Of a stretch of 23,160 bases of DNA, positions 28 through 15,742 are shown one piece after another (the first letter of the stretch is position 1; every line of letters starts with the position of its first letter). The DNA comes from an uncultured virus (IMG/VR IMGVR_UViG_3300030116_005269) (lineage: Duplodnaviria; Heunggongvirae; Uroviricota; Caudoviricetes). The position numbers were made by a program, and so were the translations under genes. The notes beneath the pieces are model-generated. The model saw nothing but the letters and a program-made list of their open reading frames with translations. It was not told the DNA's origin and did not search any database. The stretch lies in the IMG/VR virus record IMGVR_UViG_3300030116_005269, positions 62,001-85,160 of that record; one strand, written 5' to 3'.

Positions 28-678
28 TTAGCTCGAATATTTTATTTGGAAAACTATTGGTTTGTCGTCATCCGACTTTTCGCTATGTTCTCGTTTAGAC
101 CATTCTTTAGGATTTGATCGTTCAAGAAACCATGCACTAGCTTGCCATATACCATTTGAGGCAGCATCCGTGATTACAGCTAGGTGTGAGATCTCCCCAT
201 CTACCTTTGCTTTTTTTATAGACTCCCAAAATTCCCATAATTCCAGATCTTCAACATTTTTTATGTTATCTGGATTACCAGAACACGCTTCATCTATCTT
301 TGTTGCTTCTTGTTGCCAACGATAAAAGGTTGTAGAACTTATACCTGCAAAGGTTGCAGCCTTATTATTCGACAATCCAAGCTTTAGAGCCTTTACTAAG
401 TCCGTAAGCGTTTCTGTGGTCAATTTACTAGGTCTCCCTACTTCGTGTCCTACAATCTCAACCTCGACGGCGTCGTGATCAACTATATCGGTTTCCGGAA
501 GATCTACCTCTAGTTCATCAAATCCAATATCGTCGTCAATTACAACTTCGCTATCGGTTAGATCGGCCACTTCCTTACCGGAATAATCATTATCATTATT
601 ATCATTATTAGATAATCCTTCTACAACATCTCGTCTTTGATCAGGATCTTTGAACATATCTCTTATGTCATTATTCAT
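28..678 (-). CDS. Terminase small subunit-like HTH protein with acidic N-terminal extension
   Basis: GRPSKLT...AATFAGISSTTFYRW HTH followed by WQASAWFLERSNPKEW, a pattern typical of phage TerS-like proteins. Confidence 0.7.
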   Translation of the reverse strand: MNNDIRDMFKDPDQRRDVVEGLSNNDNNDNDYSGKEVADLTDSEVVIDDDIGFDELEVDLPETDIVDHDAVEVEIVGHEVGRPSKLTTETLTDLVKALKLGLSNNKAATFAGISSTTFYRWQQEATKIDEACSGNPDNIKNVEDLELWEFWESIKKAKVDGEISHLAVITDAASNGIWQASAWFLERSNPKEWSKREHSEKSDDDKPIVFQIKYSS

Positions 679-1245
679 ATAGTTAATAATACATTTATAC
701 TTGGATATTTAGTGCATATCTGCCGTTAGTCATAAAACCATTATTAATGTCGCGCGCTGCATAGAAAATTGGGGCAAAAAAATTTTTTTTGGTAAATATT
801 GGGCTATATGAGGGGAATAATGGGGGCTAGTAAGGAAAAAATCACAAGCCGGCTCGATTGTGAAAGGGGTGGCTAGAGTTAAGGTAAAGGAGGCCAAACC
901 CTCAACCCTAGCCAATATTGGTCGCAAGATGATCCTATTCTACTAGCTAGTAAGTGGGGTTATGGTATAGAAAAGGGGGTGTGTCCATGTACCCCCTCTT
1001 CATAACTTCCGTGACTGAAAGTTGATTCAATTATAAGATCAAAAAGCAAAAACAACAACAACTAAAGCATTTTTTATATGCGCATTTGCCGTTGCACTCA
1101 ATTTTCATTAAAAATTCTCGAGGGGTTATTTTAGATCACTATCGATTTCGGTAGCGATTTTTTAATGTACCCCCCCTATACCATAGGGGCTACGCCAAAG
1201 AATAAAAAAAAATATTATTATAAATTTTGTTTTATTGCGTATATG

Positions 1246-1265
1246 TGATATGCTTTTAGCAAGTA
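1246..1265 (+). promoter_or_regulatory. Putative extended -10 promoter of module 1
   Basis: TGaTATGCT-N6-AAGTA; same -10-N6-AAGTA geometry as the other module promoters. Confidence 0.45.
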
Positions 1266-1285
1266 TCGTAATTTGAAAGGAAATT

Positions 1286-1558
1286 ATGAAAGTAAGCAAA
1301 GGTCGGGGGCGACCTAAAAAATACCCTAATAAATTTATTTGGGTAATAGCCCCAAATAATGTGCTAACTCTAAAAATGGTGCGTTGGAACTCTTTTCGTA
1401 AAGCGTTTGTCGAAGTTTCCATTTTAGAAAATGGGGCGACCTATTTTGGAAAGCAAAAGCCAAAAGGCGTTGTTGTCTTTGAAAGTGTTGAACAAGCATT
1501 AGCTAATCAACCACGAGTAGAAGTTAATACGGAATATGTGCAAGTGGTGGGGCTATGA
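1286..1558 (+). CDS. Hypothetical protein with N-terminal AT-hook-like motif
   Basis: 90-aa ORF, RBS AAAGGA, KGRGRPKK motif. Confidence 0.75.
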   Translation: MKVSKGRGRPKKYPNKFIWVIAPNNVLTLKMVRWNSFRKAFVEVSILENGATYFGKQKPKGVVVFESVEQALANQPRVEVNTEYVQVVGL

Positions 1559-2031
1559 GTTCCACCACCCGCAAAGCTCATAAGAGTAATAAAAAGCTCA
1601 AAGCATATATTCCCGAGCTACGCCAACAATTCTACAATGTGGAACAATTCAAAGACCATAAACCACATATAGCAAATGAGGAATTTTTTAGAAATATGAA
1701 AAGTTCTAAAGTCCGTACTTTGTCTATGCAAAGGGTGGGGCTTATGGGTTGTGCTATTAAGGTGACATATTTTGGTTATATAAATGTTAAAGGGGAACAA
1801 ACAACCCCCGATAGCGTTTATATGTACGAAGTCCCTACTTTATCCGTTTGGGTTGATATTAGAAAAGCAATCTTGAACGGCTCTAGTATCGGGACAACAC
1901 TTGGGCGACACTTAACAAATATGAGAGAGATTGAAAGAAACGGGGAAATAATAAAAGAATATCCTTTTAAATATTCCAAGTTCAACAATGAAACTCAATC
2001 TTGGGAAGTTGGGAAACAATGGAAATCTTAA
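1555..2031 (+). CDS. Hypothetical protein, possible divergent KTSC-like domain
   Basis: ATGA overlap with upstream gene; SSKVRTL...YMYEVP..VW...A...SSIGTTL resembles the KTSC pattern. Confidence 0.6.
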   Translation: MSSTTRKAHKSNKKLKAYIPELRQQFYNVEQFKDHKPHIANEEFFRNMKSSKVRTLSMQRVGLMGCAIKVTYFGYINVKGEQTTPDSVYMYEVPTLSVWVDIRKAILNGSSIGTTLGRHLTNMREIERNGEIIKEYPFKYSKFNNETQSWEVGKQWKS

Positions 2032-2201
2032 CCGACCAAGAATTTCTACAATGGTACGGGCGAACTCTTTTAAAGGGTTTGCTCGGTATCTCTTTCGCTT
2101 GGGTGCTTATTGAGTACCTTTGGGAAAATAGAGAGTACTTTAAATTAATGGCTAAGGGGGATTATCATGGGGCTATTCGCCACAATAAAAATTCTAATTG
2201 A
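2019..2201 (+). CDS. Small membrane protein
   Basis: ATG at 2019; one hydrophobic segment LLKGLLGISFAWVLIEYLW. Confidence 0.6.
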   Translation: MEILTDQEFLQWYGRTLLKGLLGISFAWVLIEYLWENREYFKLMAKGDYHGAIRHNKNSN

Positions 2202-2248
2202 GCCAAACAAAAGACCACCTAAGAAAAAAAAGAAGTAAGCACAAAGAC

Positions 2249-2285
2249 AAACCCCCCGAGAAAATCGGGGGGTTTTCTTTTTTTT
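2249..2285. terminator. Bidirectional intrinsic terminator
   Basis: AAACCCCCCGA-GAAAA-TCGGGGGGTTT plus T tract, between convergent genes. Confidence 0.85.
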
Positions 2286-2313
2286 CTAGGGATCTAGATC
2301 TAGTTCCGCTAAA

Positions 2314-2703
2314 TTACCAACCTATGTCGTACTTATCAAATAAGTAATCGTAAGCCAACCCGCCAAGCTCTAGCCATTTCTCGTGAGTGACTAGGGTTTT
2401 AATTAAGTAGCAATCTTTTAATTTGTTTTCTCGGCTAAGCTCGGCGTAAGGTACGCACATTAAACGGTGGCTTTCTCTTTTCTCTTTTGTATATCCACCC
2501 TTTACCTCGTAGCCCTCACTAAGTAAAAACCACAACTCGTTAACCGCACCAATCCAAAAAGAGTGTATACGGTCGGCTAGTTGTTCCATTGTGGCGTTGT
2601 CCTCACTTGTTAGGATTGCTTCCAAACTGTATTCCGTTGAGAACGCCCCCCAATCGATTACATTTCCTTTTATAGTCTTTTTTAGTCTTTTGTCCATATT
2701 CAT
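2314..2703 (-). CDS. RyR (ryanodine receptor repeat)-like domain protein
   Basis: EQLADRIHSFW ... H.LMCVPYAELSRENKLKD matches the LA..H..W / VPY.EL....K.KD pattern. Confidence 0.65.
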   Translation of the reverse strand: MNMDKRLKKTIKGNVIDWGAFSTEYSLEAILTSEDNATMEQLADRIHSFWIGAVNELWFLLSEGYEVKGGYTKEKRESHRLMCVPYAELSRENKLKDCYLIKTLVTHEKWLELGGLAYDYLFDKYDIGW

Positions 2704-2831
2704 TATTTTTGTTTCCTTTTCTCTCTTGTACTTATTACTAGCGACAAGTTTTTAAAAATTTGGCGAAAATACCAAATTATTTTAAATTTTTTTGTACTTC
2801 TTAGACTTTCGCCTAAAATGTTCATTTTCAT
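2703..2831 (-). CDS. Possible 42-aa basic peptide (MKMNILGESLRSTKKFKIIW...)
   Basis: RBS AAGGA; open frame ending in a TAATG stop/start overlap with the RyR-like gene; below ORF-track cutoff. Confidence 0.35.
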   Translation of the reverse strand: MKMNILGESLRSTKKFKIIWYFRQIFKNLSLVISTREKRKQK

Positions 2832-2880
2832 AATTTCCTTATTTTTATTGTTTCCTTACTAATTACTAGTGACAAGTTTT
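2729..2880 (-). repeat. Duplicated 24-bp promoter-like element AAAACTTGTCRCTAGTAATWAGTA
   Basis: Copies at 2729-2752 and 2857-2880, 22/24 identical, each directly upstream of an RBS and ATG. Confidence 0.7.
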
Positions 2881-2950
2881 AGAGAATTTGAGCTTTTTTT
2901 TAAATTTTTTTAAATTTTTTTTTTGATATATTTTGTAGGTCTTTTCATTT

Positions 2951-3020
2951 TCAATGTAGGCATTTTCAATCTCGTATTTTTATTTATTTTTTTGTTCATT
3001 AACGGAAATTTTCAATCTCG
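2951..3020 (+). repeat. Junction motif, two tandem copies
   Basis: TCAAT-GTAGGC-ATTTTCAATCTCG (2951-2974) and CATTA-ACGGAA-ATTTTCAATCTCG (2997-3020). Confidence 0.9.
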
Positions 3021-3065
3021 TTTTTTGTTTAGTAGATTCCCGGAAATAATAATTTTGTTAAAAGC

Positions 3066-3094
3066 TTGACGATCTAGCTTCGCTAGATCATAAT
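3066..3094 (+). promoter_or_regulatory. Sigma70-type promoter with palindrome in the spacer
   Basis: TTGACG-17-CATAAT; perfect inverted repeat GATCTAGC-TTC-GCTAGATC at 3071-3089. Confidence 0.65.
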
Positions 3095-3123
3095 TTTTAT
3101 ATGGTATCGAATAGGAGGAAAAT

Positions 3124-3690
3124 ATGAAACCATTAGGCGACTTAATAGAAGTCGGCGAAGAACTAGATGGGGCAACTATTTGTGATTGGTGCAACGGTGT
3201 CTTTAAAGGGGACGGAAATCTAGAGCGTTGTAATGAGTGCTTAATTCAAAATATGGATGAAAAAGATATTTTGAGATTGTATTTTAGGCGTTGTGATTAT
3301 TGTTCAGGTGGTGCATCCAATATCGGTGTTGTTGATGGTTGTCTTTATGTTTGTGAAAATTGTTTTACAGATTGGATAATTGATGAAACTATATCTCACA
3401 CTAAAGATAACAATAAATCATTTTTGGAAAGTGATAAAAAACAAGATTGGATATTAGATGTTAATGACCAAATCCGTTCCGGGTATAATATCGAAGACAC
3501 ATGGGAATGTGAACTTTACTCTAAAAACGGAGCAACATTTAACTGCCATGAAATTAGGTATAAAGTCCGTAAAGGCAAAGTTGTAGTTATAACTCAATAT
3601 GAAGAAGATGACCAAATACAAGATTTTGTTTGGCATAATCATGATGAGTGTTGGGGCGAATATCTAAATTTCGGTTGTTCAAATACATGA
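3124..3690 (+). CDS. Cys-rich putative zinc-binding hypothetical protein
   Basis: RBS AGGAGG; four CxxC pairs (CDWC, CNEC, CDYC, CENC). Confidence 0.8.
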   Translation: MKPLGDLIEVGEELDGATICDWCNGVFKGDGNLERCNECLIQNMDEKDILRLYFRRCDYCSGGASNIGVVDGCLYVCENCFTDWIIDETISHTKDNNKSFLESDKKQDWILDVNDQIRSGYNIEDTWECELYSKNGATFNCHEIRYKVRKGKVVVITQYEEDDQIQDFVWHNHDECWGEYLNFGCSNT

Positions 3691-3717
3691 TCACAATCAG
3701 CTAAATTGTAGGGGGGG

Positions 3718-3727
3718 NNNNNNNNNN
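3718..3727. other. Assembly gap (10 N), probably inside a terminator hairpin
   Basis: G7 run, then Ns, then a T tract just after the 3124-3690 stop codon. Confidence 0.8.
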
Positions 3728-3743
3728 TCTTTTTTTTCAAAGA

Positions 3744-3767
3744 CATTATTGCAAATTTTCAATCTGC
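3744..3767 (+). repeat. Junction motif copy
   Basis: CATTA-TTGCAA-ATTTTCAATCTGC. Confidence 0.85.
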
Positions 3768-3804
3768 TTTTTGCAGGGATCAATTTTTTACACCAAAAGA
3801 AAAA

Positions 3805-3822
3805 CCCTGCACAATGGCAGGG
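3805..3822 (-). terminator. Intrinsic terminator of the ArdC-like module
   Basis: CCCTGC-ACAATG-GCAGGG with an A tract on the left (U tract on the minus strand). Confidence 0.75.
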
Positions 3823-3847
3823 CTTCTCTTATGTCAGGGCACGGGGG

Positions 3848-4747
3848 TTAAATTTTTAACTCATCAATTATTTTTGTAGCTGTTTCAAAAATGTCATTTA
3901 ATGAATTTCTAAATAAAGATTTAGTTTTGCCGTCTCCCCAGCCATCAATATATTTGATGTTAAAGTCTTCACAGTCAAGCCCATAAAATTGGCTAACAAT
4001 ATAAGCTACACTTTCAGCTTCAACTTCAGCAATATCTCGGCATTCTTTATAATTAATTTTTTCATGCATCAATTTGTGGGCTAACTCGTGCAATGAAACT
4101 GATGCTTTCATTTTCATATCAAGCCCTTCTTGAATTTGAATTAATTTATTTTCAAAAAGTGTAAAGCCGTTGGAAGCATCACGGTAATTTTTAACAATGA
4201 ACTGCCAACCATCAGCTTCAACATAATTTTTTACGGCATTGAATATGTCAGCCCCTTCTGTACCTTTTAATTTTTTTGGTAGTCGTGGGTCTTCAACTGC
4301 TATGCCATCATCGTTTAATGGCTCAGTGTCGGTTATGTCAAACACATGATATGCCCAGAAGGTTGTATAGCTAACCTGTAGGTCTTCCTCTTCCTTCTTG
4401 CTCTCAACTTTTATATTTTTTTGAATTGGTCTAATTTGTTCAATTCTTGTTGGTCGGGTACGCTCAACGCATGAGCAGTCAACATTTTTAAATGCCCTGC
4501 AAACAGTACAAGCTACAACAATACGGTTTTTTTCAATCCATTGTTTATAAGTAGCTACTATTTGAGCATCGGGCTTCGTAAAGTAAATTAACATTGTATT
4601 GTTAAAACTTCTGCCCTGATAAAAGCCCGACATATAATTTAAAAATTGTTTTAGCTGTTCCTGATCAACAACAACGGAAGACAGTTTTTTGTCTAAGCCA
4701 TCAACAATTCCTTTTACAATTTCCTTATTGGAAACTTTATTTTTCAT
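3848..4747 (-). CDS. ArdC-like protein: ssDNA-binding N-terminal domain plus ImmA/IrrE-type metallopeptidase domain (putative anti-restriction)
   Basis: SFNNTMLI...VATYKQW...R and VFDITDT; HELAH zinc motif followed by EVEAESVAY and YIDGW; RBS GGAGG. Confidence 0.8.
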   Translation of the reverse strand: MKNKVSNKEIVKGIVDGLDKKLSSVVVDQEQLKQFLNYMSGFYQGRSFNNTMLIYFTKPDAQIVATYKQWIEKNRIVVACTVCRAFKNVDCSCVERTRPTRIEQIRPIQKNIKVESKKEEEDLQVSYTTFWAYHVFDITDTEPLNDDGIAVEDPRLPKKLKGTEGADIFNAVKNYVEADGWQFIVKNYRDASNGFTLFENKLIQIQEGLDMKMKASVSLHELAHKLMHEKINYKECRDIAEVEAESVAYIVSQFYGLDCEDFNIKYIDGWGDGKTKSLFRNSLNDIFETATKIIDELKI

Positions 4748-4764
4748 AGTTCCTCCCTGAACAA

Positions 4765-4804
4765 TACTTAATTAAATTATAAACTAACTAAGAATTATTT
4801 GCAA
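4765..4804 (-). promoter_or_regulatory. Module promoter
   Basis: TTGCAA-17-TATAAT-N6-AAGTA on the minus strand. Confidence 0.8.
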
Positions 4805-4829
4805 ATCTCGGCTATGCAGTTTTAAAAAC

Positions 4830-4853
4830 CGAGATTGAGATTAAATTTTAATG
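4830..4853 (-). repeat. Junction motif copy, inverted
   Basis: Plus strand reads CGAGATTGAGATT-AAATTT-TAATG. Confidence 0.8.
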
Positions 4854-4897
4854 TTAATGAGTAGTTGTAAGCCCGTATTTATTTTTCTCTTTAGTTT

Positions 4898-4921
4898 CAT
4901 TAATGCACATTTTCAATCTCG
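4898..4921 (+). repeat. Junction motif copy
   Basis: CATTA-ATGCAC-ATTTTCAATCTCG. Confidence 0.9.
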
Positions 4922-4930
4922 TTTTGGCAC

Positions 4931-4958
4931 AAAAAAAACGGGGAGCAAAGTCCCCGTT
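4931..4958 (-). terminator. Intrinsic terminator
   Basis: AACGGGGA-GCAAAG-TCCCCGTT preceded by an A tract. Confidence 0.85.
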
Positions 4959-4973
4959 AATTTTTTTAATTAT

Positions 4974-5609
4974 TTATGCACACTTATTGCATACTTCATC
5001 TTGATACTCTAACCCAAACATTGTACGAATAATTTTATTCGGCACAAATGACACTTCGCAACGCATACAATCAGTTAGATCATTGTCCGTAGTTTTCTTT
5101 GGTAATTCTAAGATCGTATGTGTGTACTTTGCACTAGACGGATAAAAGAAAGATTTTGCAACTTCTCTATTTAAAAAGATACAATTTTTATCCATACCTA
5201 ACATTATGGATATACCTTCTCTTCTATACGGCATAATGTATTTATCAGGTGCCACTTCAATAACTGCTTTTCTTAGCTTTCTTTTATTGCTTTTATACTC
5301 TTTGTATCTATCAAGCAACATATCGGCTAATACATTATTTTCAACATTGCGAATATCTAACCGCTTCCAATCCCAATCGTACAACGCACTTCTAAAAACA
5401 ATATTAAAATCGTTTTTGTTATTACGGGTAAATTGAAACTCTCCTGATAATATACCTGTAAATATACTACGGATAGCATCATCTTTGCTATCAAAGTTGC
5501 CACCTAGTAAATGTGTTTTTACTGGTACGGTATCGTTATTAACTTTACCTCTAGCTACTATTTGATTATCTTTATTTACACTTATGTATTGTGTTTTAAA
5601 ATGACTCAT
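4974..5609 (-). CDS. Hypothetical protein with C-terminal CxxC pair
   Basis: Start moved to ATG at 5609 (MSHFKTQ), which follows RBS AGGAG and the promoter. Confidence 0.8.
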   Translation of the reverse strand: MSHFKTQYISVNKDNQIVARGKVNNDTVPVKTHLLGGNFDSKDDAIRSIFTGILSGEFQFTRNNKNDFNIVFRSALYDWDWKRLDIRNVENNVLADMLLDRYKEYKSNKRKLRKAVIEVAPDKYIMPYRREGISIMLGMDKNCIFLNREVAKSFFYPSSAKYTHTILELPKKTTDNDLTDCMRCEVSFVPNKIIRTMFGLEYQDEVCNKCA

Positions 5610-5629
5610 TTTAACTCCTAACTTTTCAA

Positions 5630-5668
5630 TACTTATAAACATTATAACTGCATATCGCACTTATGCAA
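5630..5668 (-). promoter_or_regulatory. Module promoter
   Basis: TTGCAT-16-TATAAT-N6-AAGTA on the minus strand. Confidence 0.8.
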
Positions 5669-5688
5669 CTTAAATATAAAAATGGGAT

Positions 5689-5828
5689 CGGGATTGAGTT
5701 TTAATGTTAATGAGATGGTCATGTACTTTGACGGCCATATTTGCATATCTTTTTGGTTTCATTAATTGAGATTCTCAATCTCGTTTTAGGGATCACGATC
5801 CAAATGGGATTGAAAAAATCTTTTAATG
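5689..5828. repeat. Three junction motif copies (inverted, forward, inverted) between divergent promoters
   Basis: CGGGATTGAGTTT-TAATGT-TAATG (5689-5712); CATTA-ATTGAG-ATTCTCAATCTCG (5760-5783); TGGGATTGAAAAA-ATCTTT-TAATG (5805-5828). Confidence 0.85.
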
Positions 5829-5831
5829 TAT

Positions 5832-5870
5832 TTGCATATCTTTGCTATGCGACTACTATAAGAGTAAGTA
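5832..5870 (+). promoter_or_regulatory. Module promoter
   Basis: TTGCAT-16-TACTAT-N6-AAGTA. Confidence 0.75.
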
Positions 5871-5892
5871 TTGGACGAAAGTTAGGAAAACA

Positions 5893-6150
5893 ATGTTAAG
5901 TGCAAACGGACTTTTCATAATGTTTATCTTTGGTATAGGTGTTGGAATCGCTATTGAGGGATTCCTTAACCTAAGAAAGCTTAGACAAATTGAAAAACAA
6001 AATGGAATGACTATTGAAGATCTACAAGATAGCTATAACTTTGCTATCGGTCTTTTATACGAAAACGATGTAGAAAAATTACAAAACTATGTATTTATGA
6101 CTACACAAGAGGAAAAAATTGCTTATAGAAAAGAGATTGGAAATGAGTGA
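5893..6150 (+). CDS. Small protein with N-terminal transmembrane helix
   Basis: ATG at 5893 after AGGA; LFIMFIFGIGVGIAIEGFL. Confidence 0.75.
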   Translation: MLSANGLFIMFIFGIGVGIAIEGFLNLRKLRQIEKQNGMTIEDLQDSYNFAIGLLYENDVEKLQNYVFMTTQEEKIAYRKEIGNE

Positions 6151-6352
6151 TAATGACAACCTAAAAACTTTCCACTTTGAAATCAAGTACACGGACTTTT
6201 ATCAAGCCCGAGCTAGATCTAAAGAGGAAGTACAAAAAATGATTGATGATGGTGTTTTAGAGCCATACGATAGCCAATCAAGTACAACGGACATTGAACA
6301 ACTCAAATGTCAAGAGTGTATTGAGGAAGTTAAGGAGCGAGAAGATCAATGA
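6143..6352 (+). CDS. Hypothetical protein
   Basis: ATG at 6143 overlapping the end of the upstream gene; ATGA overlap with the downstream gene. Confidence 0.7.
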   Translation: MSDNDNLKTFHFEIKYTDFYQARARSKEEVQKMIDDGVLEPYDSQSSTTDIEQLKCQECIEEVKEREDQ

Positions 6353-6810
6353 AATACTTTAGAAAACTTTTTAAAAAGATTCAAAAGGGGTCTTTGAGGG
6401 ACTTATCTATCTATTGGAAAGAAAGCGACTTAGATGCCGTTGAGGATAGAGTTGACTACATTACTAACCAACGAGATAATAGTGAAGAGTTTGATGCAGG
6501 TTATTATCAGGGTCAAAAGAATATGATTCGTGTTATTAATGAGTTGCTTAAATTCTATCAAACTCCAATAGATAACATTATTGAGTATATGTATCGTGAT
6601 GAAAAGAAACATAGTCAAGAAGAGTGTGGCATGGACTTTGACGATCAAGATCTAATTAACGCCGTAGTTAATTATAAAAACCATAGCGAGTGGGTTATGA
6701 GTGGTCTAGTTGAAGTAGAAGATCACATTTTCATATCCATATTGAAATTAAAATATCCACAAGAGTTTGTAGATATGAATTTATTTAAAGGGTACGGGAT
6801 AGAAGTTTAA
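6349..6810 (+). CDS. Hypothetical protein
   Basis: 153-aa ORF, translationally coupled, followed by a terminator. Confidence 0.8.
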   Translation: MKYFRKLFKKIQKGSLRDLSIYWKESDLDAVEDRVDYITNQRDNSEEFDAGYYQGQKNMIRVINELLKFYQTPIDNIIEYMYRDEKKHSQEECGMDFDDQDLINAVVNYKNHSEWVMSGLVEVEDHIFISILKLKYPQEFVDMNLFKGYGIEV

Positions 6811-6840
6811 TCATCTATCCTAACGGAACGATACTAAGAG

Positions 6841-6870
6841 AGTGGGGGTTAATTCCCCCACTTTTTTTTT
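6841..6870 (+). terminator. Intrinsic terminator
   Basis: AGTGGGGG-TTAATT-CCCCCACT plus T tract. Confidence 0.9.
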
Positions 6871-6905
6871 GCTTTGATTTTCTCTTTTGCTTTTTTTTTC
6901 CATTT

Positions 6906-6929
6906 CATTATGGCAAATTTTCAATCTCG
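6906..6929 (+). repeat. Junction motif copy
   Basis: CATTA-TGGCAA-ATTTTCAATCTCG. Confidence 0.9.
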
Positions 6930-6978
6930 TTTTCCAGATCAATCGAATCTATGGATTACAAGAAATCTAAAACTTGTG

Positions 6979-7017
6979 TTGCATATCGTTGTAATGCGTC
7001 TAAAATGGTTTTAAGTA
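6979..7017 (+). promoter_or_regulatory. Module promoter
   Basis: TTGCAT-16-TAAAAT-N6-AAGTA. Confidence 0.8.
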
Positions 7018-7038
7018 TTGTTTAGGAAAGGACAAATA

Positions 7039-7710
7039 ATGAAACTAGTAGTTAAATACATAGTTGAAATTGACGGACAAATTAAAGAGGAAAAAAATAT
7101 TGTTGAAGTTGATTTACCTTATGGACAAATTGACGAGGACGATAGCCGTAAAATAAATCCCGAAACTTCTAACGACTTATTAAGCGTTATGAGTAGAGGA
7201 AATATTTATGTGGGCGACGATATTGAGTTTCAAAATCTTACAAAAGAAATTGAAAGTCAAGAAATAATACCCGACTTAAAAATTGGTTTGTGTTCTAACG
7301 GACATATATTGAGAGCCGATTATGGAACGGGTGACTATTTCCACCTCTTTAAAGAGGATAGAGAGTGGTTTGATAAGATTGAACATATTTGGAATAGGGA
7401 ATTTAATTATGTTCACGAGGTTAAGAACAAAGCCGACGATTATTTAGTAGATAATCCAAACCCGACCAAAAATTGCTTACCTACAAATGTTATGGATTGT
7501 GCTTTTTGTGGTTGTAATGAGTATTACTTATTAAAAGACCTAATGACACAAGATTTCCAAGATAATGGTTTTGATAATATCCAAAGCTATAACGAGGTAT
7601 CTTTGGACGAGATTAAGGGTGAGTGTCTTACTTTTCACAAGTACGATAGTGCTATTAGTGAGAGTGGTTATTTGGAAAGAATTAGGAAAGAAAATGGCTT
7701 TAAAGAATAA
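7039..7710 (+). CDS. Acidic hypothetical protein
   Basis: ATG at 7039 after AAAGGA; CSNGH and CAFCGC motifs. Confidence 0.8.
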   Translation: MKLVVKYIVEIDGQIKEEKNIVEVDLPYGQIDEDDSRKINPETSNDLLSVMSRGNIYVGDDIEFQNLTKEIESQEIIPDLKIGLCSNGHILRADYGTGDYFHLFKEDREWFDKIEHIWNREFNYVHEVKNKADDYLVDNPNPTKNCLPTNVMDCAFCGCNEYYLLKDLMTQDFQDNGFDNIQSYNEVSLDEIKGECLTFHKYDSAISESGYLERIRKENGFKE

Positions 7711-8041
7711 TCTTAAATTACAACACACTTGCTTGGGTTGTCATAAAAAGATAAGTACCAAGCAAATCAATACCCATACTCAAATGGGATTTTGTGATCA
7801 TTGTGGCGAGTACCCTTATGTTGTTGCAAGAGTAAATGCAAAAGGGGAATTACTAGGTGAGTACAACGATATAAGTTGTTCTTTTTGTAAAAAGAATAAT
7901 CGTTTCTACTTTCCTTATCGCATTATGGAACAAGTAAAAAAATGTAAGGGTTGTGGCGAGATAGCCGTAATCATTGACGAAACTTTTGTGCAAGAGTATC
8001 TCAATGACCTACAAGAGAATTTGCACATTATAAGGGGGTGA
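7694..8041 (+). CDS. Double zinc-ribbon-like hypothetical protein
   Basis: ATG at 7694 after AGGAAAG; CLGC, CDHC, CSFC, CKGC. Confidence 0.75.
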   Translation: MALKNNLKLQHTCLGCHKKISTKQINTHTQMGFCDHCGEYPYVVARVNAKGELLGEYNDISCSFCKKNNRFYFPYRIMEQVKKCKGCGEIAVIIDETFVQEYLNDLQENLHIIRG

Positions 8042-8352
8042 ATATGGGACAAAACACAATAGGAATTGATAAAGGTGTTTATAAAGCGAACATTGAAAAT
8101 GACATTGAGGAATTAAATTCATTAATCGGCTCTAGGATTTTAGAAGTAAAAGCTTGTAAGAGTGATTATGGATTTGACTTCACTATGTTAAAGACCGATA
8201 AGACTTGGGAACAAGACGGAAAACCCGTCTATCTCATAATTAGCCAAGACGCCGAATTAAATGGTGGTGGGTTTATTGGTTTCGCCAATGTTGAGAAAAA
8301 GAACTCGCCTTTTGAGTTGGTAAAGTTTAGCGACAAGAAACGAGGTTTTTAA
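8038..8352 (+). CDS. Hypothetical protein
   Basis: 104-aa ORF (start may be ATG 8044), followed by a terminator. Confidence 0.75.
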   Translation: MNMGQNTIGIDKGVYKANIENDIEELNSLIGSRILEVKACKSDYGFDFTMLKTDKTWEQDGKPVYLIISQDAELNGGGFIGFANVEKKNSPFELVKFSDKKRGF

Positions 8353-8373
8353 CCCCTATACGATACGGAAAAA

Positions 8374-8401
8374 GCCCCCGACTAGTTCGGGGGTTTTTTT
8401 T
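8374..8401 (+). terminator. Intrinsic terminator
   Basis: GCCCCCGA-CTAGT-TCGGGGGT plus T tract. Confidence 0.9.
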
Positions 8402-8451
8402 ATGTCTATTGATCTAGCTCGCAGATCAGTATTTTCGTTTATTTTTTATTG

Positions 8452-8475
8452 CATTATGTCGCATTTTCAATCTCG
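8452..8475 (+). repeat. Junction motif copy
   Basis: CATTA-TGTCGC-ATTTTCAATCTCG. Confidence 0.9.
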
Positions 8476-8555
8476 TTCCTATGGGACTTAGTCCCACTCT
8501 CATTTTTTTGAATCGTCTAAGAGCGTTTAAATGGCCTCTTTTTTTGGAAATTGGG

Positions 8556-8594
8556 TTGCAAACGACCGAAATGCGATTATTATTGAATCAAGTA
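8556..8594 (+). promoter_or_regulatory. Module promoter
   Basis: TTGCAA-16-TATTAT-N6-AAGTA. Confidence 0.75.
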
Positions 8595-8616
8595 TCAAAT
8601 AAAGGAAGGAAAGAAA

Positions 8617-9279
8617 ATGCCTAGTTGGTGCAGTAATGATATAACTATCATTGGAACAAACGAGCAACTTACCAAGCTCAAAAAAAAGGTAAAGAATACT
8701 AAAAAAGAAATAAAAGAACGATGGGATAGTGCTGAATTGGATTTCAATAAGTGCTTTCCGTGTCCCGAGATTCTAGAAAAGATACACTCGGGTAGTTCTA
8801 ATATAAATGGAAAACAATATCGTAATTGGATAGAGTTGGATAGCAAAGGAAACTTTGTGGACTTCTTATCGAAAGAGGGTTTCACTTTGTCCATTGGGTT
8901 AGAGGATTTCCATATAGAACAACTCGTAGAGGAATATGGTGCAAGTTGTAGTTATGATTGGCAAGTCGCTAACTACGATACCAAATGGGGTGCTACGGGT
9001 TTCTTTGGTGCAGATAACGACTTCGAGCTAATCAAAAAAGACAAAGACAACACATTTAACGATTTGTATAAGTGGGAAGTCTTTGGTGATACGGCTTGGG
9101 GCGTTGCTGAGGGATTGTGGCAAAAGATTTGCAACGACTTTAGTGTGTCAATGAAAATCCAATTTGGTGGCGAGGTTGAGGCAGGAATATATGTTTGTGT
9201 TCCCGAATCACACAAAACCAAAGAAAGTGGTTATGTCGAAATAGACATAAGCGATTTAAGTGTCGGGGCTACTAGTTAG
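8617..9279 (+). CDS. DUF1281/YubB (Api92-like) ferredoxin-like family protein
   Basis: MPSWCSN.ITIIG, LDFNK..P.P, YDW.VANY.TKW and DTAW match the MPNWCSN...WGTKW...TAW family pattern. Confidence 0.75.
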   Translation: MPSWCSNDITIIGTNEQLTKLKKKVKNTKKEIKERWDSAELDFNKCFPCPEILEKIHSGSSNINGKQYRNWIELDSKGNFVDFLSKEGFTLSIGLEDFHIEQLVEEYGASCSYDWQVANYDTKWGATGFFGADNDFELIKKDKDNTFNDLYKWEVFGDTAWGVAEGLWQKICNDFSVSMKIQFGGEVEAGIYVCVPESHKTKESGYVEIDISDLSVGATS

Positions 9280-9302
9280 CCCCACACGGAAAAGGATCTG
9301 AA

Positions 9303-9470
9303 GTGTTAAAAAAAATAATTAAAGCAATTTATAAAAGTCTTGAAAAAGACATTAAGAAAATGTTTGAGAGCAAATGGGAATACATGGAGCTTGGTAGTAG
9401 CCAAACCGATTTAGTAGAATCTTATGTTCTTAAAACAATAAAAGAAACATTAGAAAGGGAATTGAAGTAG
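9303..9470 (+). CDS. Small hypothetical protein (55 aa)
   Basis: GTG start after AAAGGA; open to TAG at 9470; below ORF-track cutoff. Confidence 0.6.
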   Translation: MLKKIIKAIYKSLEKDIKKMFESKWEYMELGSSQTDLVESYVLKTIKETLERELK

Positions 9471-9628
9471 TGCCGTATATAAACAAAGAAATAATACGAG
9501 ATTTACAAGCCGTTGCGAAGTCGAGCGAATCAATGATCATTGAGGAACTAAGAAAAGATTTAACGCAACTTTTAGCAAGAACTTATGAGAAAGGTGCAGA
9601 TAGGCGTTCTCATAATGATCTCGTTTAG
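9470..9628 (+). CDS. Small hypothetical protein (52 aa, MPYINKEIIRDLQ...)
   Basis: TAGTG stop/start overlap with the upstream ORF. Confidence 0.6.
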   Translation: MPYINKEIIRDLQAVAKSSESMIIEELRKDLTQLLARTYEKGADRRSHNDLV

Positions 9629-9767
9629 TGTTAGGGCTGTATCGCATAATTTATAATTTTTTAGATGAAAGCGAAAACAAGAAAGATTTTTGCAAACACG
9701 GAAAACATAAAATTATGATTTGTGTGAAATGCGAAAAAGACTTACGCACTAAAGGTAGGTAAAGAAT

Positions 9768-9801
9768 CCCCAGACATCAGATCAATGTCTGGGGTTTTCT
9801 T
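9768..9801 (+). terminator. Intrinsic terminator
   Basis: CCCCAGACAT-CAGATCA-ATGTCTGGGG then TTTTCTT. Confidence 0.85.
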
Positions 9802-9822
9802 ATTGCCGTTTGTTTTTTTGTA

Positions 9823-9846
9823 CATTAGTGCAGATTCTCAATCTCG
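9823..9846 (+). repeat. Junction motif copy
   Basis: CATTA-GTGCAG-ATTCTCAATCTCG. Confidence 0.9.
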
Positions 9847-9864
9847 ATTATGCCTATGAGTGAT

Positions 9865-9903
9865 TTGCATTAATATTTAATATGTGTATAATTGAATCAA
9901 GTA
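9865..9903 (+). promoter_or_regulatory. Module promoter
   Basis: TTGCAT-16-TATAAT-N6-AAGTA. Confidence 0.85.
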
Positions 9904-9926
9904 TTGGATAAATGAGAGGATAAGAA

Positions 9927-10547
9927 ATGGGAAATAGAGCAAATACTGTTTTATGGACTAAAGATTCCAACGGACGAATAGAAACAAGCCCAGCGATTTA
10001 TACGCATTGGAGCGAAGATCTACAAGTCGGTATTAAAAAGCTTAGAGATTATTACGAAAGTAATAAAGATAAGGACGCAGGTTGGCATGTCGAGTATCGT
10101 TTAGAGATTCCAAGAGTGTTCCCTAAATTAGTCAATATATTAAGCGAAATGGGTATGAATCCCCAAGTGGAAATGTTTGACTTTAATAAGGACGCAAGAG
10201 ATCTCCCAACGGCTAACGATATGAGAACAATAGCCGATGATCAAGGGCTACACCTTATAGAGATTCCCTCTTTCGAGGTGACTAATAGCGAATATAAACA
10301 CGATAGGCGTATGGACTTAGATTATTCACTTAATCTATTGTTTGAGCCAAACGAAGTCGATTTTTATTCCGTTAAGGTCGATAGAGAGAACGGAACGGAC
10401 TTTGATCTAGAGGAAAACTATAAGATATTAAAAGATTTAATCAAAGGCGAGATAGATTCTTGGCTCGGCGATTTAGGTATCGAAGTTAAATTAGAACTAA
10501 AGAAAGCACATAGGGGGTGGAACGACATAACCGATAAATTTAATTAA
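9927..10547 (+). CDS. Hypothetical phage protein
   Basis: 206-aa ORF, RBS GAGGA; MGNRAN...AIYTHW N-terminus. Confidence 0.8.
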   Translation: MGNRANTVLWTKDSNGRIETSPAIYTHWSEDLQVGIKKLRDYYESNKDKDAGWHVEYRLEIPRVFPKLVNILSEMGMNPQVEMFDFNKDARDLPTANDMRTIADDQGLHLIEIPSFEVTNSEYKHDRRMDLDYSLNLLFEPNEVDFYSVKVDRENGTDFDLEENYKILKDLIKGEIDSWLGDLGIEVKLELKKAHRGWNDITDKFN

Positions 10548-10566
10548 AAAACTGAAAGATAGAAAG

Positions 10567-10592
10567 AGGGGCAGAAATGCCCCTTTTTTTTT
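10567..10592 (+). terminator. Intrinsic terminator
   Basis: AGGGGCA-GAAA-TGCCCCT plus T tract. Confidence 0.9.
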
Positions 10593-10642
10593 GCCCTAAT
10601 TGTTAGATCTTGATCACTCGTATCACCATATCTTTTTTATTA

Positions 10643-10770
10643 CATTAGTGGACATTTTCAATCCCGTTTTTTTGTAATTTTATTATTGCTGATTCTCAAT
10701 CCCTTATGACGCAGATCTAATCCCGTTTTTTATATTTTTTTTAAACCATTATTGCATTTTTTCAATCTCT
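10643..10770 (+). repeat. Cluster of junction motif copies closing the array
   Basis: CATTA-GTGGAC-ATTTTCAATCCCG (10643), TATTA-TTGCTG-ATTCTCAATCCCT (10681), CATTA-TTGCAT-TTTTTCAATCTCT (10747), plus a partial copy ending AATCCCG near 10725. Confidence 0.85.
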
Positions 10771-10784
10771 GTTATAGTAAAGAC

Positions 10785-10858
10785 GAAAGCTAAATTTCTT
10801 TCTCTCTCAAAGATAATTTGCTAATCCAATAGAAAACCCACCTTAACGGTGGGTTTTC
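10785..10858 (+). ncRNA. Candidate small RNA (hairpin with CU-rich loop plus terminator)
   Basis: Extended -10 TGtTATAGT at 10770-10778; imperfect hairpin 10788-10822; terminator 10832-10858; no ORF. Confidence 0.35.
10832..10858. terminator. Bidirectional intrinsic terminator
   Basis: GAAAACCCACC-TTAAC-GGTGGGTTTTC, where the array meets the leftward operon. Confidence 0.85.
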
Positions 10859-11074
10859 AATTTTGTCGTTGGCGACAAGTTAAAAATTGCAGGTTAGAAG
10901 TATTTTACTTCTAAGTACCCTCTTAAATTTACAACTAGTTGATCATAAATTGTGAGCATCTCCCTGCAAACTAAAGGGCTAGGTTTTCTTATACTATACA
11001 CTACATTTAGTATTCAAATTTGTACACATAATACAAATAGTCATCATTATCTAAATAACTTTGTCTAGCCCTAG

Positions 11075-11150
11075 TGGAGCAGGGGGGAATTGCACCCCCG
11101 TAGTAAAGGTTGTTAATTGGGAACACCCTAAACTCGACTATCACTGCCCC
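11075..11150 (-). ncRNA. tRNA-like RNA resembling the tRNA-like domain of tmRNA with no tag reading frame
   Basis: Acceptor stem GGGGCAG/CUGCUCC with G3:U70 and discriminator A; T arm GGGGG-UGCAAUU-CCCCC; no D stem; UCGA before the central helix. Confidence 0.65.
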
Positions 11151-11791
11151 TATAAATCTAGTTGTTCTTTAATCCACGAGATTAACTCTTGTGGACTATT
11201 AGTCCCTAGATCTTCTAATTTTTTTGACTCCCAATCATAAAAATAATCGGCGTCAACACCAAACTTATATCTACCGAACTTAAATCTAACGGTAGTTTCG
11301 TCCTCTTCGTCCTCGATCTCTTCATCTTCAAAGACTTTAGACTCCATATTCTTTAAAATTCCGTCAATATCGTCTAAATCAAAGCCCGTACCCGACAAAT
11401 CGGTTGTTTCAGTTGCTACTCTTTGTAGAAGATCAACTAACTCACCCTCTTTCCAACCACCTGCAATGGTAAGTTGGTTTGACGCAATCAAGTATGCTTC
11501 TGCCTCTTCGTCGCTTTCAAAACTTATACCACAAATAACAGGTACTAACCAATTACCCTCGTCATCAACTTTTATGTTTTTAGGAACAATAGAGTCACTT
11601 TCGCTTGATAATTGTTTTAAAGTTTCTAAACGACCGTGACCTGCTACAAGTTTACCCGTAGTTTCGTTCCTTACGGGTGGCTCAGTAAACCCAAATCTTT
11701 TAATAGACATATAGATCTCCCCAATGTCATGATCTTTTGGATTTGCGTCAGCAGGTAATATTTCGTCTAATTTTAAATATTCTAATTTCAT
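11150..11791 (-). CDS. ParB/Srx N-terminal domain protein
   Basis: NPKDH...SIKRFGFTEP...LVAGHGRLE and AYLIASNQL. Confidence 0.85.
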   Translation of the reverse strand: MKLEYLKLDEILPADANPKDHDIGEIYMSIKRFGFTEPPVRNETTGKLVAGHGRLETLKQLSSESDSIVPKNIKVDDEGNWLVPVICGISFESDEEAEAYLIASNQLTIAGGWKEGELVDLLQRVATETTDLSGTGFDLDDIDGILKNMESKVFEDEEIEDEEDETTVRFKFGRYKFGVDADYFYDWESKKLEDLGTNSPQELISWIKEQLDL

Positions 11792-12217
11792 TTAAAATGG
11801 AGCTTCTCCTTCGGCGATCTCCTCTACGGGTCTAGCTTGTGGTTGTGTAGGTTGTTGATTATTTTTTAAAATACCAACAGCACCAAACACGGTAGATACA
11901 GCAACCTCGTCGGCTATTACTGTATAATTTTTAGCTTTAGTTCCGTCTTTTTTTTCATAGGTTGATTGTTCTAACTTACCTTTTATTATTACAGGTAAAG
12001 ATTTAACACCAACCTCAAAACAATCTGCGACATGATCTGCTAAATTGCTATTTCTATTTGGATTATTGAAAACAACAATATCATACCAAGCGTCGTCTTT
12101 ATCGCTACCCTGATAGATCTTCAATGCTCCTTTAGTGAAAAAGTTTCCACTATTTGCTTGTTTATATTCTATGTTGCATAAAGTACCACTCAATACAACT
12201 TCGTTAGGAAACGCCAT
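11792..12217 (-). CDS. ssb: Single-stranded DNA-binding protein
   Basis: OB-fold pattern (VVLSG.L, WYDIVVF, VIIKGKLEQSTYEKKDG, VIADEVAVS) and acidic tail ending in PF. Confidence 0.9.
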   Translation of the reverse strand: MAFPNEVVLSGTLCNIEYKQANSGNFFTKGALKIYQGSDKDDAWYDIVVFNNPNRNSNLADHVADCFEVGVKSLPVIIKGKLEQSTYEKKDGTKAKNYTVIADEVAVSTVFGAVGILKNNQQPTQPQARPVEEIAEGEAPF

Positions 12218-12704
12218 TACTATCCTCCTCGCTTACTCGTTCCATTACTCTTGTTAAAGTACTGTTAGCCATACCAAACTTTTCAATGTATTTTTCTTTA
12301 CCACCATTGTTCCACTCCAAATCATATTCAAAGTCCTCGTGCTTTTCTTGTGTACCTTTTAGGTATCTTTCCCTACCAAAATGATACATACCCTCTGCGA
12401 CACTTTCCCAACCCTGTGACTCAATATACTCTTGTAAAGAACAAGAGTGTTGTTCAAGTCTTGGGACATCTTCTACACTAAGGTCATATCTTTGTATTTC
12501 CATAGCAGATGAAAATATTTGACTAGGGTTTGGTGGAAAATTAGCACCACTTTTAAAAGATTGCTCAATAGCTTTTTCTACATAAGTTGCACTAATACCT
12601 TTTAAATCGTTATAAACATTTTTGATCGTGTCGTCTGTCCAATTAAAATTCGGCCATTTTAATTTCATAACATGAACTATTTGCGTCCATTCATTAGCAG
12701 TCAT
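12204..12704 (-). CDS. Putative replicative helicase loader/inhibitor-like protein
   Basis: MT..EW..I......WP N-terminus and FPP.PSQI motif; lies directly after the initiator-like gene. Confidence 0.5.
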   Translation of the reverse strand: MTANEWTQIVHVMKLKWPNFNWTDDTIKNVYNDLKGISATYVEKAIEQSFKSGANFPPNPSQIFSSAMEIQRYDLSVEDVPRLEQHSCSLQEYIESQGWESVAEGMYHFGRERYLKGTQEKHEDFEYDLEWNNGGKEKYIEKFGMANSTLTRVMERVSEEDSNGVS

Positions 12705-13429
12705 GAGTTATCAACCTCCTTAGCCCACTCTTGCAATTCGTTGTGACTTTTGTAATGTCCAACTCTTTTTATATTCTTTTGGCGATCTTGATCTGTTATT
12801 ATTTCAGCATATCTATTCCAACCACCACTTAACGCTTGTGGGGTTGGTCGCTCACCATATTTTATAAAATAATTTAAACCTCTTGTATGTATGTCATCAG
12901 CATTACCACCTGCGTCTTGTATTTGCTTTATAGCGTTGTTTATACGCCCTCTTTCGTCTTTAGCAAGACTTTGTTTAAGTTCTTCGTAAGACTTTCCATA
13001 AACAACCTCACACATTGCTTTAAACATTTCTGCTAAGTCACTAGCATCTAATTCTTTATTGACTTTAGTTATTTCACTCTTTTGAGTTCTATAAGCCCTT
13101 TGTCGTTCTTTATTTTTAGTCCTTTGCTCTAACAAAGCACCGTGATAATCTTCCCAATCGTGTACGATTAAAGATTTTTCTTGTTGGTCTAACCAACCTG
13201 TTTCGACTAATGCGTTTACATATTTGTCATTATCGCCATCAAACCTACTAGCTTTAGCAATCATATTTTTGTATCGTGTAAGATCTCCTGTTTCAGCATA
13301 ATTTAGACACCACCACCATAAATAATGTAAATGCCCTATTGCTTGTGCAGGATGAATTTCTAACAGATTGCTTAGTAAGTCAACTTTTGGATGTTGCGAT
13401 AGCGTTTCATCACTCTTGATCCAAGCCAT
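12701..13429 (-). CDS. Putative replication initiator
   Basis: Start ATG 13429 (MAWIKSDETLSQHPKV); LVETGWLD...IVHDWEDY..RTKNKERQRAYR resembles phage replisome-organiser N-termini. Confidence 0.65.
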   Translation of the reverse strand: MAWIKSDETLSQHPKVDLLSNLLEIHPAQAIGHLHYLWWWCLNYAETGDLTRYKNMIAKASRFDGDNDKYVNALVETGWLDQQEKSLIVHDWEDYHGALLEQRTKNKERQRAYRTQKSEITKVNKELDASDLAEMFKAMCEVVYGKSYEELKQSLAKDERGRINNAIKQIQDAGGNADDIHTRGLNYFIKYGERPTPQALSGGWNRYAEIITDQDRQKNIKRVGHYKSHNELQEWAKEVDNS

Positions 13430-13784
13430 GTTGTTCTTTCTCCTTTTCCCAATTACAAAGTAGTCCCTCAACAACTTTTTCTAAATCACTAATCCGTGTT
13501 AATAAGATTCCGTCGCCTGTTCCACTTGGCATACATATCATAGCGAAAGGTTTATCGTTTGTCATGCCTTCCGTGTTATTAATTTTTTTTCTTACTTCGT
13601 CCTCAACACGAAAAAAGTGACTTGCTATTGTATTTACTTGCTTACCACTTTTAACTTCAAATTGCACCTCCGAGTTCCAAAGCTCTTCATCTAAATTAGA
13701 CGCACCAAATTCTCTATCGGGTACTTTTAAAAGCTTTCTTGCTCGTTCTTGTAATTTGAATCCTGATTGTTTTGCATCACTCAT
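13410..13784 (-). CDS. Holliday-junction-resolvase-like PD-(D/E)XK protein, paralog B
   Basis: G..LQER, FEVKSGKQ, KPFAMI. Confidence 0.55.
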   Translation of the reverse strand: MSDAKQSGFKLQERARKLLKVPDREFGASNLDEELWNSEVQFEVKSGKQVNTIASHFFRVEDEVRKKINNTEGMTNDKPFAMICMPSGTGDGILLTRISDLEKVVEGLLCNWEKEKEQHGLDQE

Positions 13785-15603: not shown

Positions 15604-15619
15604 ATATTCATACTACTAC

Positions 15620-15742
15620 TTATTTTAAAAAATTTTTAACTCTTATCTCAATACCAGCATCTAATTTTTTCCACATATCATCAACTTGTGCTGAATACCA
15701 ATCGTTTCTTTTTTTTCTTTTTATAAACATTTTTAATATCAT
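15620..15742 (-). CDS. Small hypothetical protein (40 aa)
   Basis: TAATG overlap with the upstream gene, RBS AGGAG. Confidence 0.55.
   Translation of the reverse strand: MILKMFIKRKKRNDWYSAQVDDMWKKLDAGIEIRVKNFLK

Follow-up and report, generated by a model that had tools for sequence, protein, structure and literature searches.

The stretch of DNA analysed here (23,160 nt; hereafter the window) spans positions 62,001–85,160 of the IMG/VR record IMGVR_UViG_3300030116_005269, an 85,160-bp sequence called G000 in the comparisons, where G and L numbers stand for the phage records and contigs compared and X numbers for sequencing runs. The record comes from a tailed phage and encodes an HK97-type capsid, WhiB, SAM synthetase and many methylases. 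Between the terminase small subunit gene terS (28–678, minus strand; phrog_4102, E 5.6e-30) and the replication region, the window carries an array of gene units punctuated by a 24-bp motif, CATTA-N6-ATTYTCAATCYCG. A sequence-only reading had described this array and proposed that it is a platform for shuffling gene cassettes or a series of sites for one protein. The observation is confirmed here, shuffling is largely rejected, and the array proves to belong to an unusual and well-supported genome architecture.

With up to three mismatches the motif matches the window 14 times, against 0.14 times in shuffled sequence, and all matches with at most two mismatches in the whole 85,160-bp record fall within 2997–10770 of the window. 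Thus, the motif is real and limited to the array, no copy lies to the right of 10770, as had been stated, and the uniform genome-wide spread that had been named as evidence against array specificity is not seen. The copies listed earlier are all present, but the one at 2951 has the right arm only, and an unlisted inverted match lies in coding DNA at 6132. The consensus of 257 distinct sites is CATTA-W-K-D-S-W-V-ATTYTCAATCYCR-TTT with a T-rich lead-in. Both the TTT tail and the upstream T tract belong to the signal, in line with the earlier remark that forward copies follow T-rich tracts, and conservation is limited to 24–28 bp, separate from promoter and terminator. The 6-bp spacer had been described as different in every copy; it is not free, its fourth position being C or G in 90% of the distinct sites. 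No 12-mer other than the right arm occurs at least three times in all three complete genomes.

With every contig turned to its majority strand, forward sites number 322 and reverse sites 8. Doublets recur at spacings of 38 bp (26 cases), 54 bp (34) and 62 bp (11), and the tightest tandem is a set of six copies with a 22-bp period in G008. Along complete arrays the number of sites per junction increases toward the replication region (segment M below), and in five of eight complete arrays most arm tails read CTCG on the terS side and CCCA on the M side. Two inverted copies of the window (4830–4861 and 5678–5714) are alike over a longer stretch that contains internal duplications of 6 bp, which gives each of them two overlapping motif frames offset by 6 bp.

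The sequence-only reading counted about nine units punctuated by the motif. Seven are bounded by it; none stands ahead of the first operon (1286–2290, plus strand, terminator 2249–2275) or of 2314–2703. The second gene of the first operon is KTSC-like and kept in five of seven phages, and Atlas feature matches to KTSC clusters reach 0.82, a lead only. The half motif (2951–2974, plus) is followed by an exact copy (2997–3020, plus) that opens unit 1 (gene 3124–3690, plus). A copy with two mismatches (3744–3767, plus) precedes a terminator and a leftward ArdC-like gene (3848–4747, minus), whose matches to PF06114 (E 1.6e-4) and to the anti-restriction family phrog_7245 (E 8.7e-4) are both weak. 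An inverted, degenerate copy (4830–4853, minus) lies upstream of the leftward promoter of that gene, an exact one (4898–4921, plus) precedes a terminator and the gene 4974–5609 (minus), and a second inverted, degenerate copy (5689–5712, minus) is again found upstream of a leftward promoter. Ahead of the unit 5893–6810 stands a pair (5760–5828) made of an exact forward copy at 5760 and an inverted one at 5805. Exact forward copies at 6906–6929, 8452–8475 and 9823–9846 precede the units 7039–8352, 8617–9750 and 9927–10547, respectively, and the array ends in a plus-strand cluster of three copies (10643–10770, starting at 10643, 10681 and 10747). The median unit measures 1,146 bp, and sites occur about every 1.1 kb.

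Each unit had also been credited with its own promoter and terminator. Terminator-like hairpins are indeed enriched in 1000–11200 (24 versus 6.5 expected) and a phage-type promoter, TTGCAW-N16-18-TAnnnT, recurs ahead of units, but generic sigma-70 matches are not enriched in the same interval (38 versus 38.9 expected). A gap of ten Ns (3718–3727) conceals about 39 bp of terminator sequence; contig L107 is 29 bp longer here, with a site spacing of 776 instead of 747. Two 34-bp direct repeats (2729–2762 and 2857–2890) resemble leftward promoters (TTGTCG/TTGTCA), and a related stretch is found at the repeat border described below (10862–10890).

Six phages of IMG/VR and about 50 marine contigs carry equivalent arrays. 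Scanned for the exact motif, IMG/VR returned 25 loci on nine contigs, six with arrays of 11–14 sites and three with single matches, and a metagenome scan returned 119 stretches, with 76 listed loci analysed. Before counting, 25 of 83 sequences were dropped (14 single-match loci and 11 overlaps or duplicates); near-identical contigs remain, and the counts are not independent. In seven long contigs the location of the array is constant and its genes are largely different, and 16 of the 120 gene families have members on both strands. WhiB, a GC content of 36.6% and the marine source runs point to a marine actinobacterial host. The only RNA run contained 6% of the sequence words. From WhiB, the low GC and the marine origin we infer Actinomarina (PMC7771536); the phage WhiB is 63–65% identical to WhiB of small actinobacterial genomes, no closer than to that of larger ones. 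Among the matches listed, an exact-motif scan of GTDB gave only scattered single ones in unrelated taxa, and at two mismatches no more than three matches per genome were found across 401 Actinomycetota genomes. In 61 small-genome (about 1 Mb) actinobacteria there were 21 matches versus 5 for the control; of eight fetched, six lie in long open reading frames (ORFs) and two at a gene overlap. A host regulon or host dif site is therefore unlikely, as the 401 genomes show no enrichment and the fetched matches are all coding or at gene overlaps. Motif-less sister arrays have other junction elements. In G007 (15850–23900; L305, L306) the element is oriented and consists of a T tract, CCAAGT and two or three GC-rich tetraloop hairpins, and a third junction-repeat type (ACCCTAGAGC..GAGCTCCGAGCTATTAGC hairpins) lies between small genes in G011 and G012 (L310:11156–12117, L311:11288–12286).

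Inverted-repeat architecture of the genome

The array lies inside a 10.4-kb segment, R (503–10881), which also contains the 5′ end of terS and the late promoter region. It is followed by M (10882–23160; 12.3 kb), the single-copy replication region, which has R at both ends. The borders were found by alignment with relatives that are 95–100% identical: homology breaks at 503 in L033, L034, L035 and L107, and at 10881 in L111. Past 503, which is inside terS, L033, L034 and L035 run into 0.7–1.9 kb of new sequence and then into position 1 of G000, whereas L111, past 10881, enters the reverse complement of 23160, the last base of the record. These junctions imply that R joins both ends of M and both ends of the remaining, structural segment L. 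The border cuts terS at codon 58–59, leaving a stub in the second copy; in L033 the stub has residues 1–58, 29 unrelated residues and a stop. In run X5 a Logan unitig of 10,409 bp corresponds to 503–10882 plus the 29 bp concealed by the window's N gap and ends at 10882, and since it has no bubbles the copies of R are identical. At the same position unitig depth falls from 41.2 to 21–25 in X5 and from 16.8 to 7.7–10.5 in X2. R thus has about 1.8 times the depth of M in X2 and X5, a ratio set against M only and taken from contig depth, which is not a strict copy number; the ratio is roughly 2 and patchy in X9, and the strain mixture in X11 is uninformative.

The repeat is also visible at the ends of other records, three of which begin or end in a perfect inverted copy of the right end of their own array (83 bp in G001, 79 bp in G002 and 43 bp in G005). 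IMG/VR lists G006 and G009 alike as having 'inverted terminal repeats': the first is an M segment of 15.6 kb whose inverted ends measure 205 bp, the second an L segment of 58 kb whose inverted ends, 91 bp long, lie inside terS. The motif-less sisters G007 and G013 have end copies of 70 and 60 bp and a region of about 10 kb between terS and M with different cargo. Altogether, seven of 13 related records tested carry the end-repeat signature. It was not seen in the other six (G000, G003, G004, G008, G011 and G012), whose ends lie elsewhere or, as in G000, right at the border.

Each of the two unique regions thus lies between inverted copies of one repeat, whose dose is about double. Based on the assemblies, the map is very probably circular, L (about 64 kb)-R-M-R′, where R′ is R inverted, and the genome totals about 64.4 + 10.4 + 12.3 + 10.4 = 97.5 kb. 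Recombination between the two R copies would invert M and L and maintain the identity of the repeats. The longest contig of initiator cluster P0010 (G001 type) has 95,096 bp, near the size predicted for an uncollapsed genome. Alternatively, R could be single-copy and the junctions could reflect mis-assembly or a mixture of strains that differ by inverted segments. The architecture rests on short-read assemblies, in which no single read spans R-M-R′, the depth ratio is 1.8 rather than 2.0, summed contig depth is not copy number, and X2 and X5 may be source samples. An inversion polymorphism with one R, however, predicts equal depth of R and M, and the repeat end lies at both termini of single contigs (G006, G009), in a pattern shared by seven records from different samples and lineages. 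Two different sequences are joined at each end of R, unlike the product of hairpin read-through, and a single-copy R is accordingly very improbable.

What the motif may bind

In both copies of R the motif points from terS to M, whatever the direction of the genes. At 10 of 60 distinct junctions an intact site stands before convergent terminators, and one more lies between minus-strand genes, while 23 gaps of at least 70 nt, five of them divergent, lack the motif. Sites are found 8–130 nt upstream of the next −35 box at no fixed distance, and no helical phasing between motif and promoter was detected (Rayleigh p about 0.28 at 10.5 bp and 0.07 at 10.0). Orientation-fixed sites that are kept at convergent terminators, are absent from other gaps and are unphased argue against a simple promoter element. 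As a sigma-70 promoter the motif was rejected since internal copies have no −10 box at the right distance, and a Zur/Fur box was rejected on account of the invariant left arm, the non-palindromic form and the fixed orientation; the right arm resembles a Zur half-site. Most likely, the motif would serve a single phage protein as a directional binding box.

The last copy differs from the others. It opens the terminal element (10747–10865, plus), in which it is followed by a −10 box at +27, a CTCTCTC tract and a terminator, and which is a candidate origin with a short RNA. The layout is common to six of seven aligned phages; the seventh (G002) keeps the −10 box, tract and terminator without an overlapping motif. 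The last copy lies 110–230 bp from the repeat border. A −10 box at +27/28 with a CTCTCTC tract occurs in 10 sites, against two other such −10 boxes among 262 sites. From 10785 to 10865 runs a candidate RNA of 70–80 nt with a conserved CUCUCUC tract, which in two phages extends to CUCCUU, like the anti-Shine-Dalgarno tail.

The candidate binder preferred here is the replication initiator encoded in M (12701–13429, minus; phrog_9474, E 3.5e-38). Its fold model has a predicted local distance difference test score (pLDDT) of 74.6, with no PDB match at E ≤ 0.001. In four motif-less relatives the initiator (284–327 aa) retains a purine-tract linker, which in three of the four contains repeats of 21–22-bp period; the tightest motif tandem likewise has a period of 22 bp, although spacings of 38, 54 and 62 bp dominate elsewhere. 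The window's initiator is without this linker, and no clustered internal repeats were found in the initiators of six motif phages (236–252 aa). An initiator is therefore present with no other repeat array to bind; GC skew tracks the coding strand and does not place the origin. The short repeat-less initiators, set against the linker repeats of motif-less relatives, and the recurrence of the right-arm 12-mer favour the initiator as binder, with iterons that would have moved out of the initiator gene, a proposal that we hold tentatively and at somewhat less than even odds. Under this proposal the motif copies would be initiator boxes displaced from the site that they usually occupy within the initiator gene. 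The terminal cluster, dense and accompanied by a promoter and a pyrimidine tract, would serve as an origin that occurs twice, once on each side of M, and single junction copies could be auxiliary or fork-pausing sites, like SPP1 oriR. To the quadripartite architecture and the initiator-box motif taken together we assign a probability of about 0.45. A broader scenario, held to be unlikely, concerns a widespread group of marine actinobacterial siphophages whose 10-kb inverted repeat would hold the early accessory array and, in this lineage, the displaced initiator boxes: twin origins and initiator roadblocks in the repeats would drive flip-flop recombination during replication and turn theta replication into double rolling circles that feed packaging. 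The yeast 2-micron plasmid reportedly uses such a flip-flop as its route of double rolling-circle amplification; none was found for a phage in the literature searched.

Several points weigh against the initiator. Its correlation with the motif reflects one evolutionary split, most doublet spacings (38, 54 and 62 bp) are not whole helical turns as in a classic iteron array, and the pyrimidine tract lies on the opposite side relative to the intragenic repeats of G007. Motif-less sisters with the same inverted repeat carry unrelated oriented elements at their junctions, GC-rich hairpins in the case of G007 and different hairpin repeats in G011 and G012, and such elements may therefore serve a general role independent of the initiator. 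Binding of the motif by the initiator is itself a prediction from sequence. A search of the literature on intragenic phage iterons found nothing, and the rule about their usual place rests on a review of SPP1 and on general background.

The main rival keeps the inverted repeat and makes the motif a transcriptional operator, bound head-to-tail by an HTH_17, WhiB or LmbU-like protein that would silence or insulate early units, with the terminal cluster controlling the small RNA. An HTH_17 (Xis/BldC-like) protein is encoded at 18787–19056 (plus; PF12728, E 2.6e-6), and its homologues adjoin the array in four other phages. The placement of sites between terminator and promoter, not far upstream of −35 boxes, fits an operator, as do the overlap of the last copy with a promoter and the two inverted copies of the window that face leftward promoters. 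BldC-type HTH proteins are reported to bind direct repeats directionally (PMC5859096). An operator is nevertheless rather unlikely, given that orientation is independent of gene direction, that 11 of the 60 distinct junctions keep a site with no rightward or divergent promoter, that the 23 empty gaps include divergent ones, that the motif lacks the 9-bp AATT-N4-C period of BldC, and that the G002 terminal promoter is kept without an overlapping motif. In practice the motif is a handle for all these possibilities, as one oligonucleotide could be offered to three or four candidate proteins.

More doubtful still is a directional event that takes place at the motif while DNA enters or once it is packaged, for instance nicks programmed into one strand or the staged ejection of a T5-like first segment. 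R measures about 10 kb, starts at terS and carries early accessory genes in every phage examined, and its strand-specific sites, about 1.1 kb apart, are densest at the far end; strand-specific nick motifs are said to occur in phage tf. Against this stand the lack of an HNH nuclease among the proteins scanned and an internal second copy of R that entry would not need.

Gain and loss of units, and neighbouring features

Site-specific shuffling is not supported. Among contigs at least 85% identical, nine of 30 indel breakpoints fall in motif zones (six of 30 in an earlier pass), compared with 97 of 321 gene boundaries that have a site, and the breakpoints are thus not enriched at the motif. Of 15 distinct indels between close relatives, three have both ends at motif zones, three have one end there and nine have neither. 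Among orthologues of at least 70% identity, a different gene follows at 17 of 106 motif junctions and at 63 of 279 within-unit boundaries, so that a change of neighbour is no commoner at motifs, in a test in which gene pairs are not independent and ORF calls are automatic. Sites that recombine as in Xer or Cre systems would share spacers, but neighbouring sites agree at 2.56 of six positions and doublets at 2.52, close to random pairs (2.27). A search of six records, of which three are complete, gave no tyrosine recombinase (PF00589), nor did the three complete ones give a serine resolvase (PF00239); the search for a recombinase elsewhere in the genome, proposed with the sequence-only reading, thus had a negative outcome.

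The sequence-only reading had held that fixed module content and order would refute shuffling. Content and order do vary, with 51 gene pairs in reversed and 356 in kept order (some owing to paralogues), and whole units are sometimes lost between motifs (L053 versus L084; L111 versus the window). L111 has an additional 590-bp unit between the copies at 10643 and 10681. Both flanking sites are retained in the shorter form, an outcome not expected of a crossover inside the motif core. The contig joints that could have come from excised circular units have 20–52 letters on the short side, which is compatible with repeat cross-matching. Units would then be gained and lost by ordinary recombination on repeats, sometimes with the motif as homology. 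Of the two readings proposed at the outset, an array of sites for one protein fits, whereas the shuffling platform mostly fails its own tests.

A cassette system worked by host XerCD, or by a recombinase that tolerates unmatched spacers and escapes recognition, could draw on the direct arm-6-arm layout, three clean whole-unit indels between motifs and two tyrosine recombinases in each of three probable hosts, but the lack of a phage recombinase, the unenriched breakpoints, the unfused sites of L111, the invariant CATTA and ATTTT, which do not fit the Xer core (ATAA-N6-TTAT), and the failure to find a conserved intergenic copy in the 61 small-genome actinobacteria make it highly improbable. Searched with a dif core, 26 genomes yielded control matches as often as real ones.

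Directly upstream of terS and inside the repeat lies a conserved non-coding element (865–945, plus; GGCTAG..GGTAAAGGAGGCNAAACCC..CTAGCC..GTCGCAAGAT). This hairpin element is common to all seven array phages compared, and its exact pattern occurs in IMG/VR in five array phages only; its fold z is −1.1 and it has no match in Rfam. It is a candidate cos/pac packaging signal or small RNA. A Rfam scan of 600–11200 gave nothing above threshold. On the minus strand at 11072–11150 a 79-nt tRNA-like element matches the tmRNA model below threshold (E 8.8e-6) and is missed by ARAGORN, which found no tRNA in the window and ten loci; host tRNAs score similarly, and an element of this kind follows the SSB gene of G007. 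Further into M, 19061–19975 (plus) encodes a probable single-strand annealing recombinase. Its sole match is phrog_19042, of unknown function, it is 58–70% identical in G001, G002, G004 and G005, and we take it to be RecT/Bet-like from its motif. DNA methyltransferase genes form two clusters, three in tandem at the end of M (20516–22885) and several beside terS, with SAM synthetase, at 56909–61871 of G000; where they lie in M is not the same in G000 and G002.

Comparison with known systems

Integron attC arrays, pdif modules and shufflons also consist of gene units between sites with an arm-spacer-arm look. The present array differs from them in that no recombinase was found, the sites form no hairpin, spacers are unmatched and breakpoints are not enriched. 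Closer to it are the promoter early stem-loop (PeSL) elements of T4-type phages, in which promoter and terminator are conserved over about 100 bp (PMC2839356, PMC4122927) and 10 of 14 differential genes adjoin a PeSL (PMC2839356). Both systems show repeated terminator-promoter junctions around orphan genes and the gain and loss of units without a dedicated recombinase. In the phages described here, however, what is conserved is a separate 24-bp asymmetric box of fixed orientation, and only three of 15 indels are bounded by it.

Plasmid iterons are direct asymmetric repeats bound by an initiator. Phage SPP1 has one origin within the initiator gene and another between genes, and its initiator, gp38, has been proposed to stall forks at oriR and thereby set off recombination-dependent formation of concatemers (PMC6316719). 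The terminal cluster resembles SPP1 oriL/oriR in its direct asymmetric repeats adjoining a skewed tract and in the possibility of an intergenic origin. Unlike in SPP1, binding is predicted, copies are spread across 8 kb and doubled by the inverted repeat, and no intragenic origin is left.

To our knowledge, the long repeats of tailed phages have been assumed to be solely direct terminal repeats. The linear, 267-kb Burkholderia jumbo phage Matilda, described in a preprint one month old, carries two unrelated inverted-repeat pairs at its two ends with no circular junction; its main text calls the architecture previously undescribed and expects further cases to be masked by collapsed assemblies (bioRxiv 10.64898/2026.10.21.760668). 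Going by that text, Matilda is the first characterised exception. It is likewise a tailed phage in which kilobase-long inverted repeats flank segments in both orientations, and its repeats show up as coverage peaks and carry genes that are expressed early. The present phages instead have one repeat pair with both ends of L joining R, a circular map of about 97 kb, a core that would flip and a repeat made of a motif-punctuated accessory array; the word 'motif' is absent from the main text on Matilda. This preprint, whose supplements could list further phages, was the only relevant work found on such a layout in phages, and neither array nor motif was found in literature on Actinomarina phages and modular repeats that lies outside subscription journals.

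Database records of these phages are called complete, though they are about 12 kb short and contain false rearrangements. Further cases should be recognisable from contigs at whose end a short stretch of an internal site recurs in inverted form, together with a two-fold step in depth. Lying in the repeat, the most variable genes are present at double dose, and how such genomes are replicated and packaged becomes a testable question. Plastid genomes are quadripartite, with a large and a small unique region separated by inverted repeats. Alphaherpesviruses have the same order of parts (UL-IRS-US-TRS, Arch-1) and form isomers (PMC12096621). As in both of these, a gene interrupted at the border persists as a stub in the other repeat in the present genomes, which differ in being those of bacteriophages, in their unrelated sequences and in a repeat whose cargo is variable accessory genes. 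The layout of plastids and herpesviruses extends across a group of ordinary-sized marine phages.

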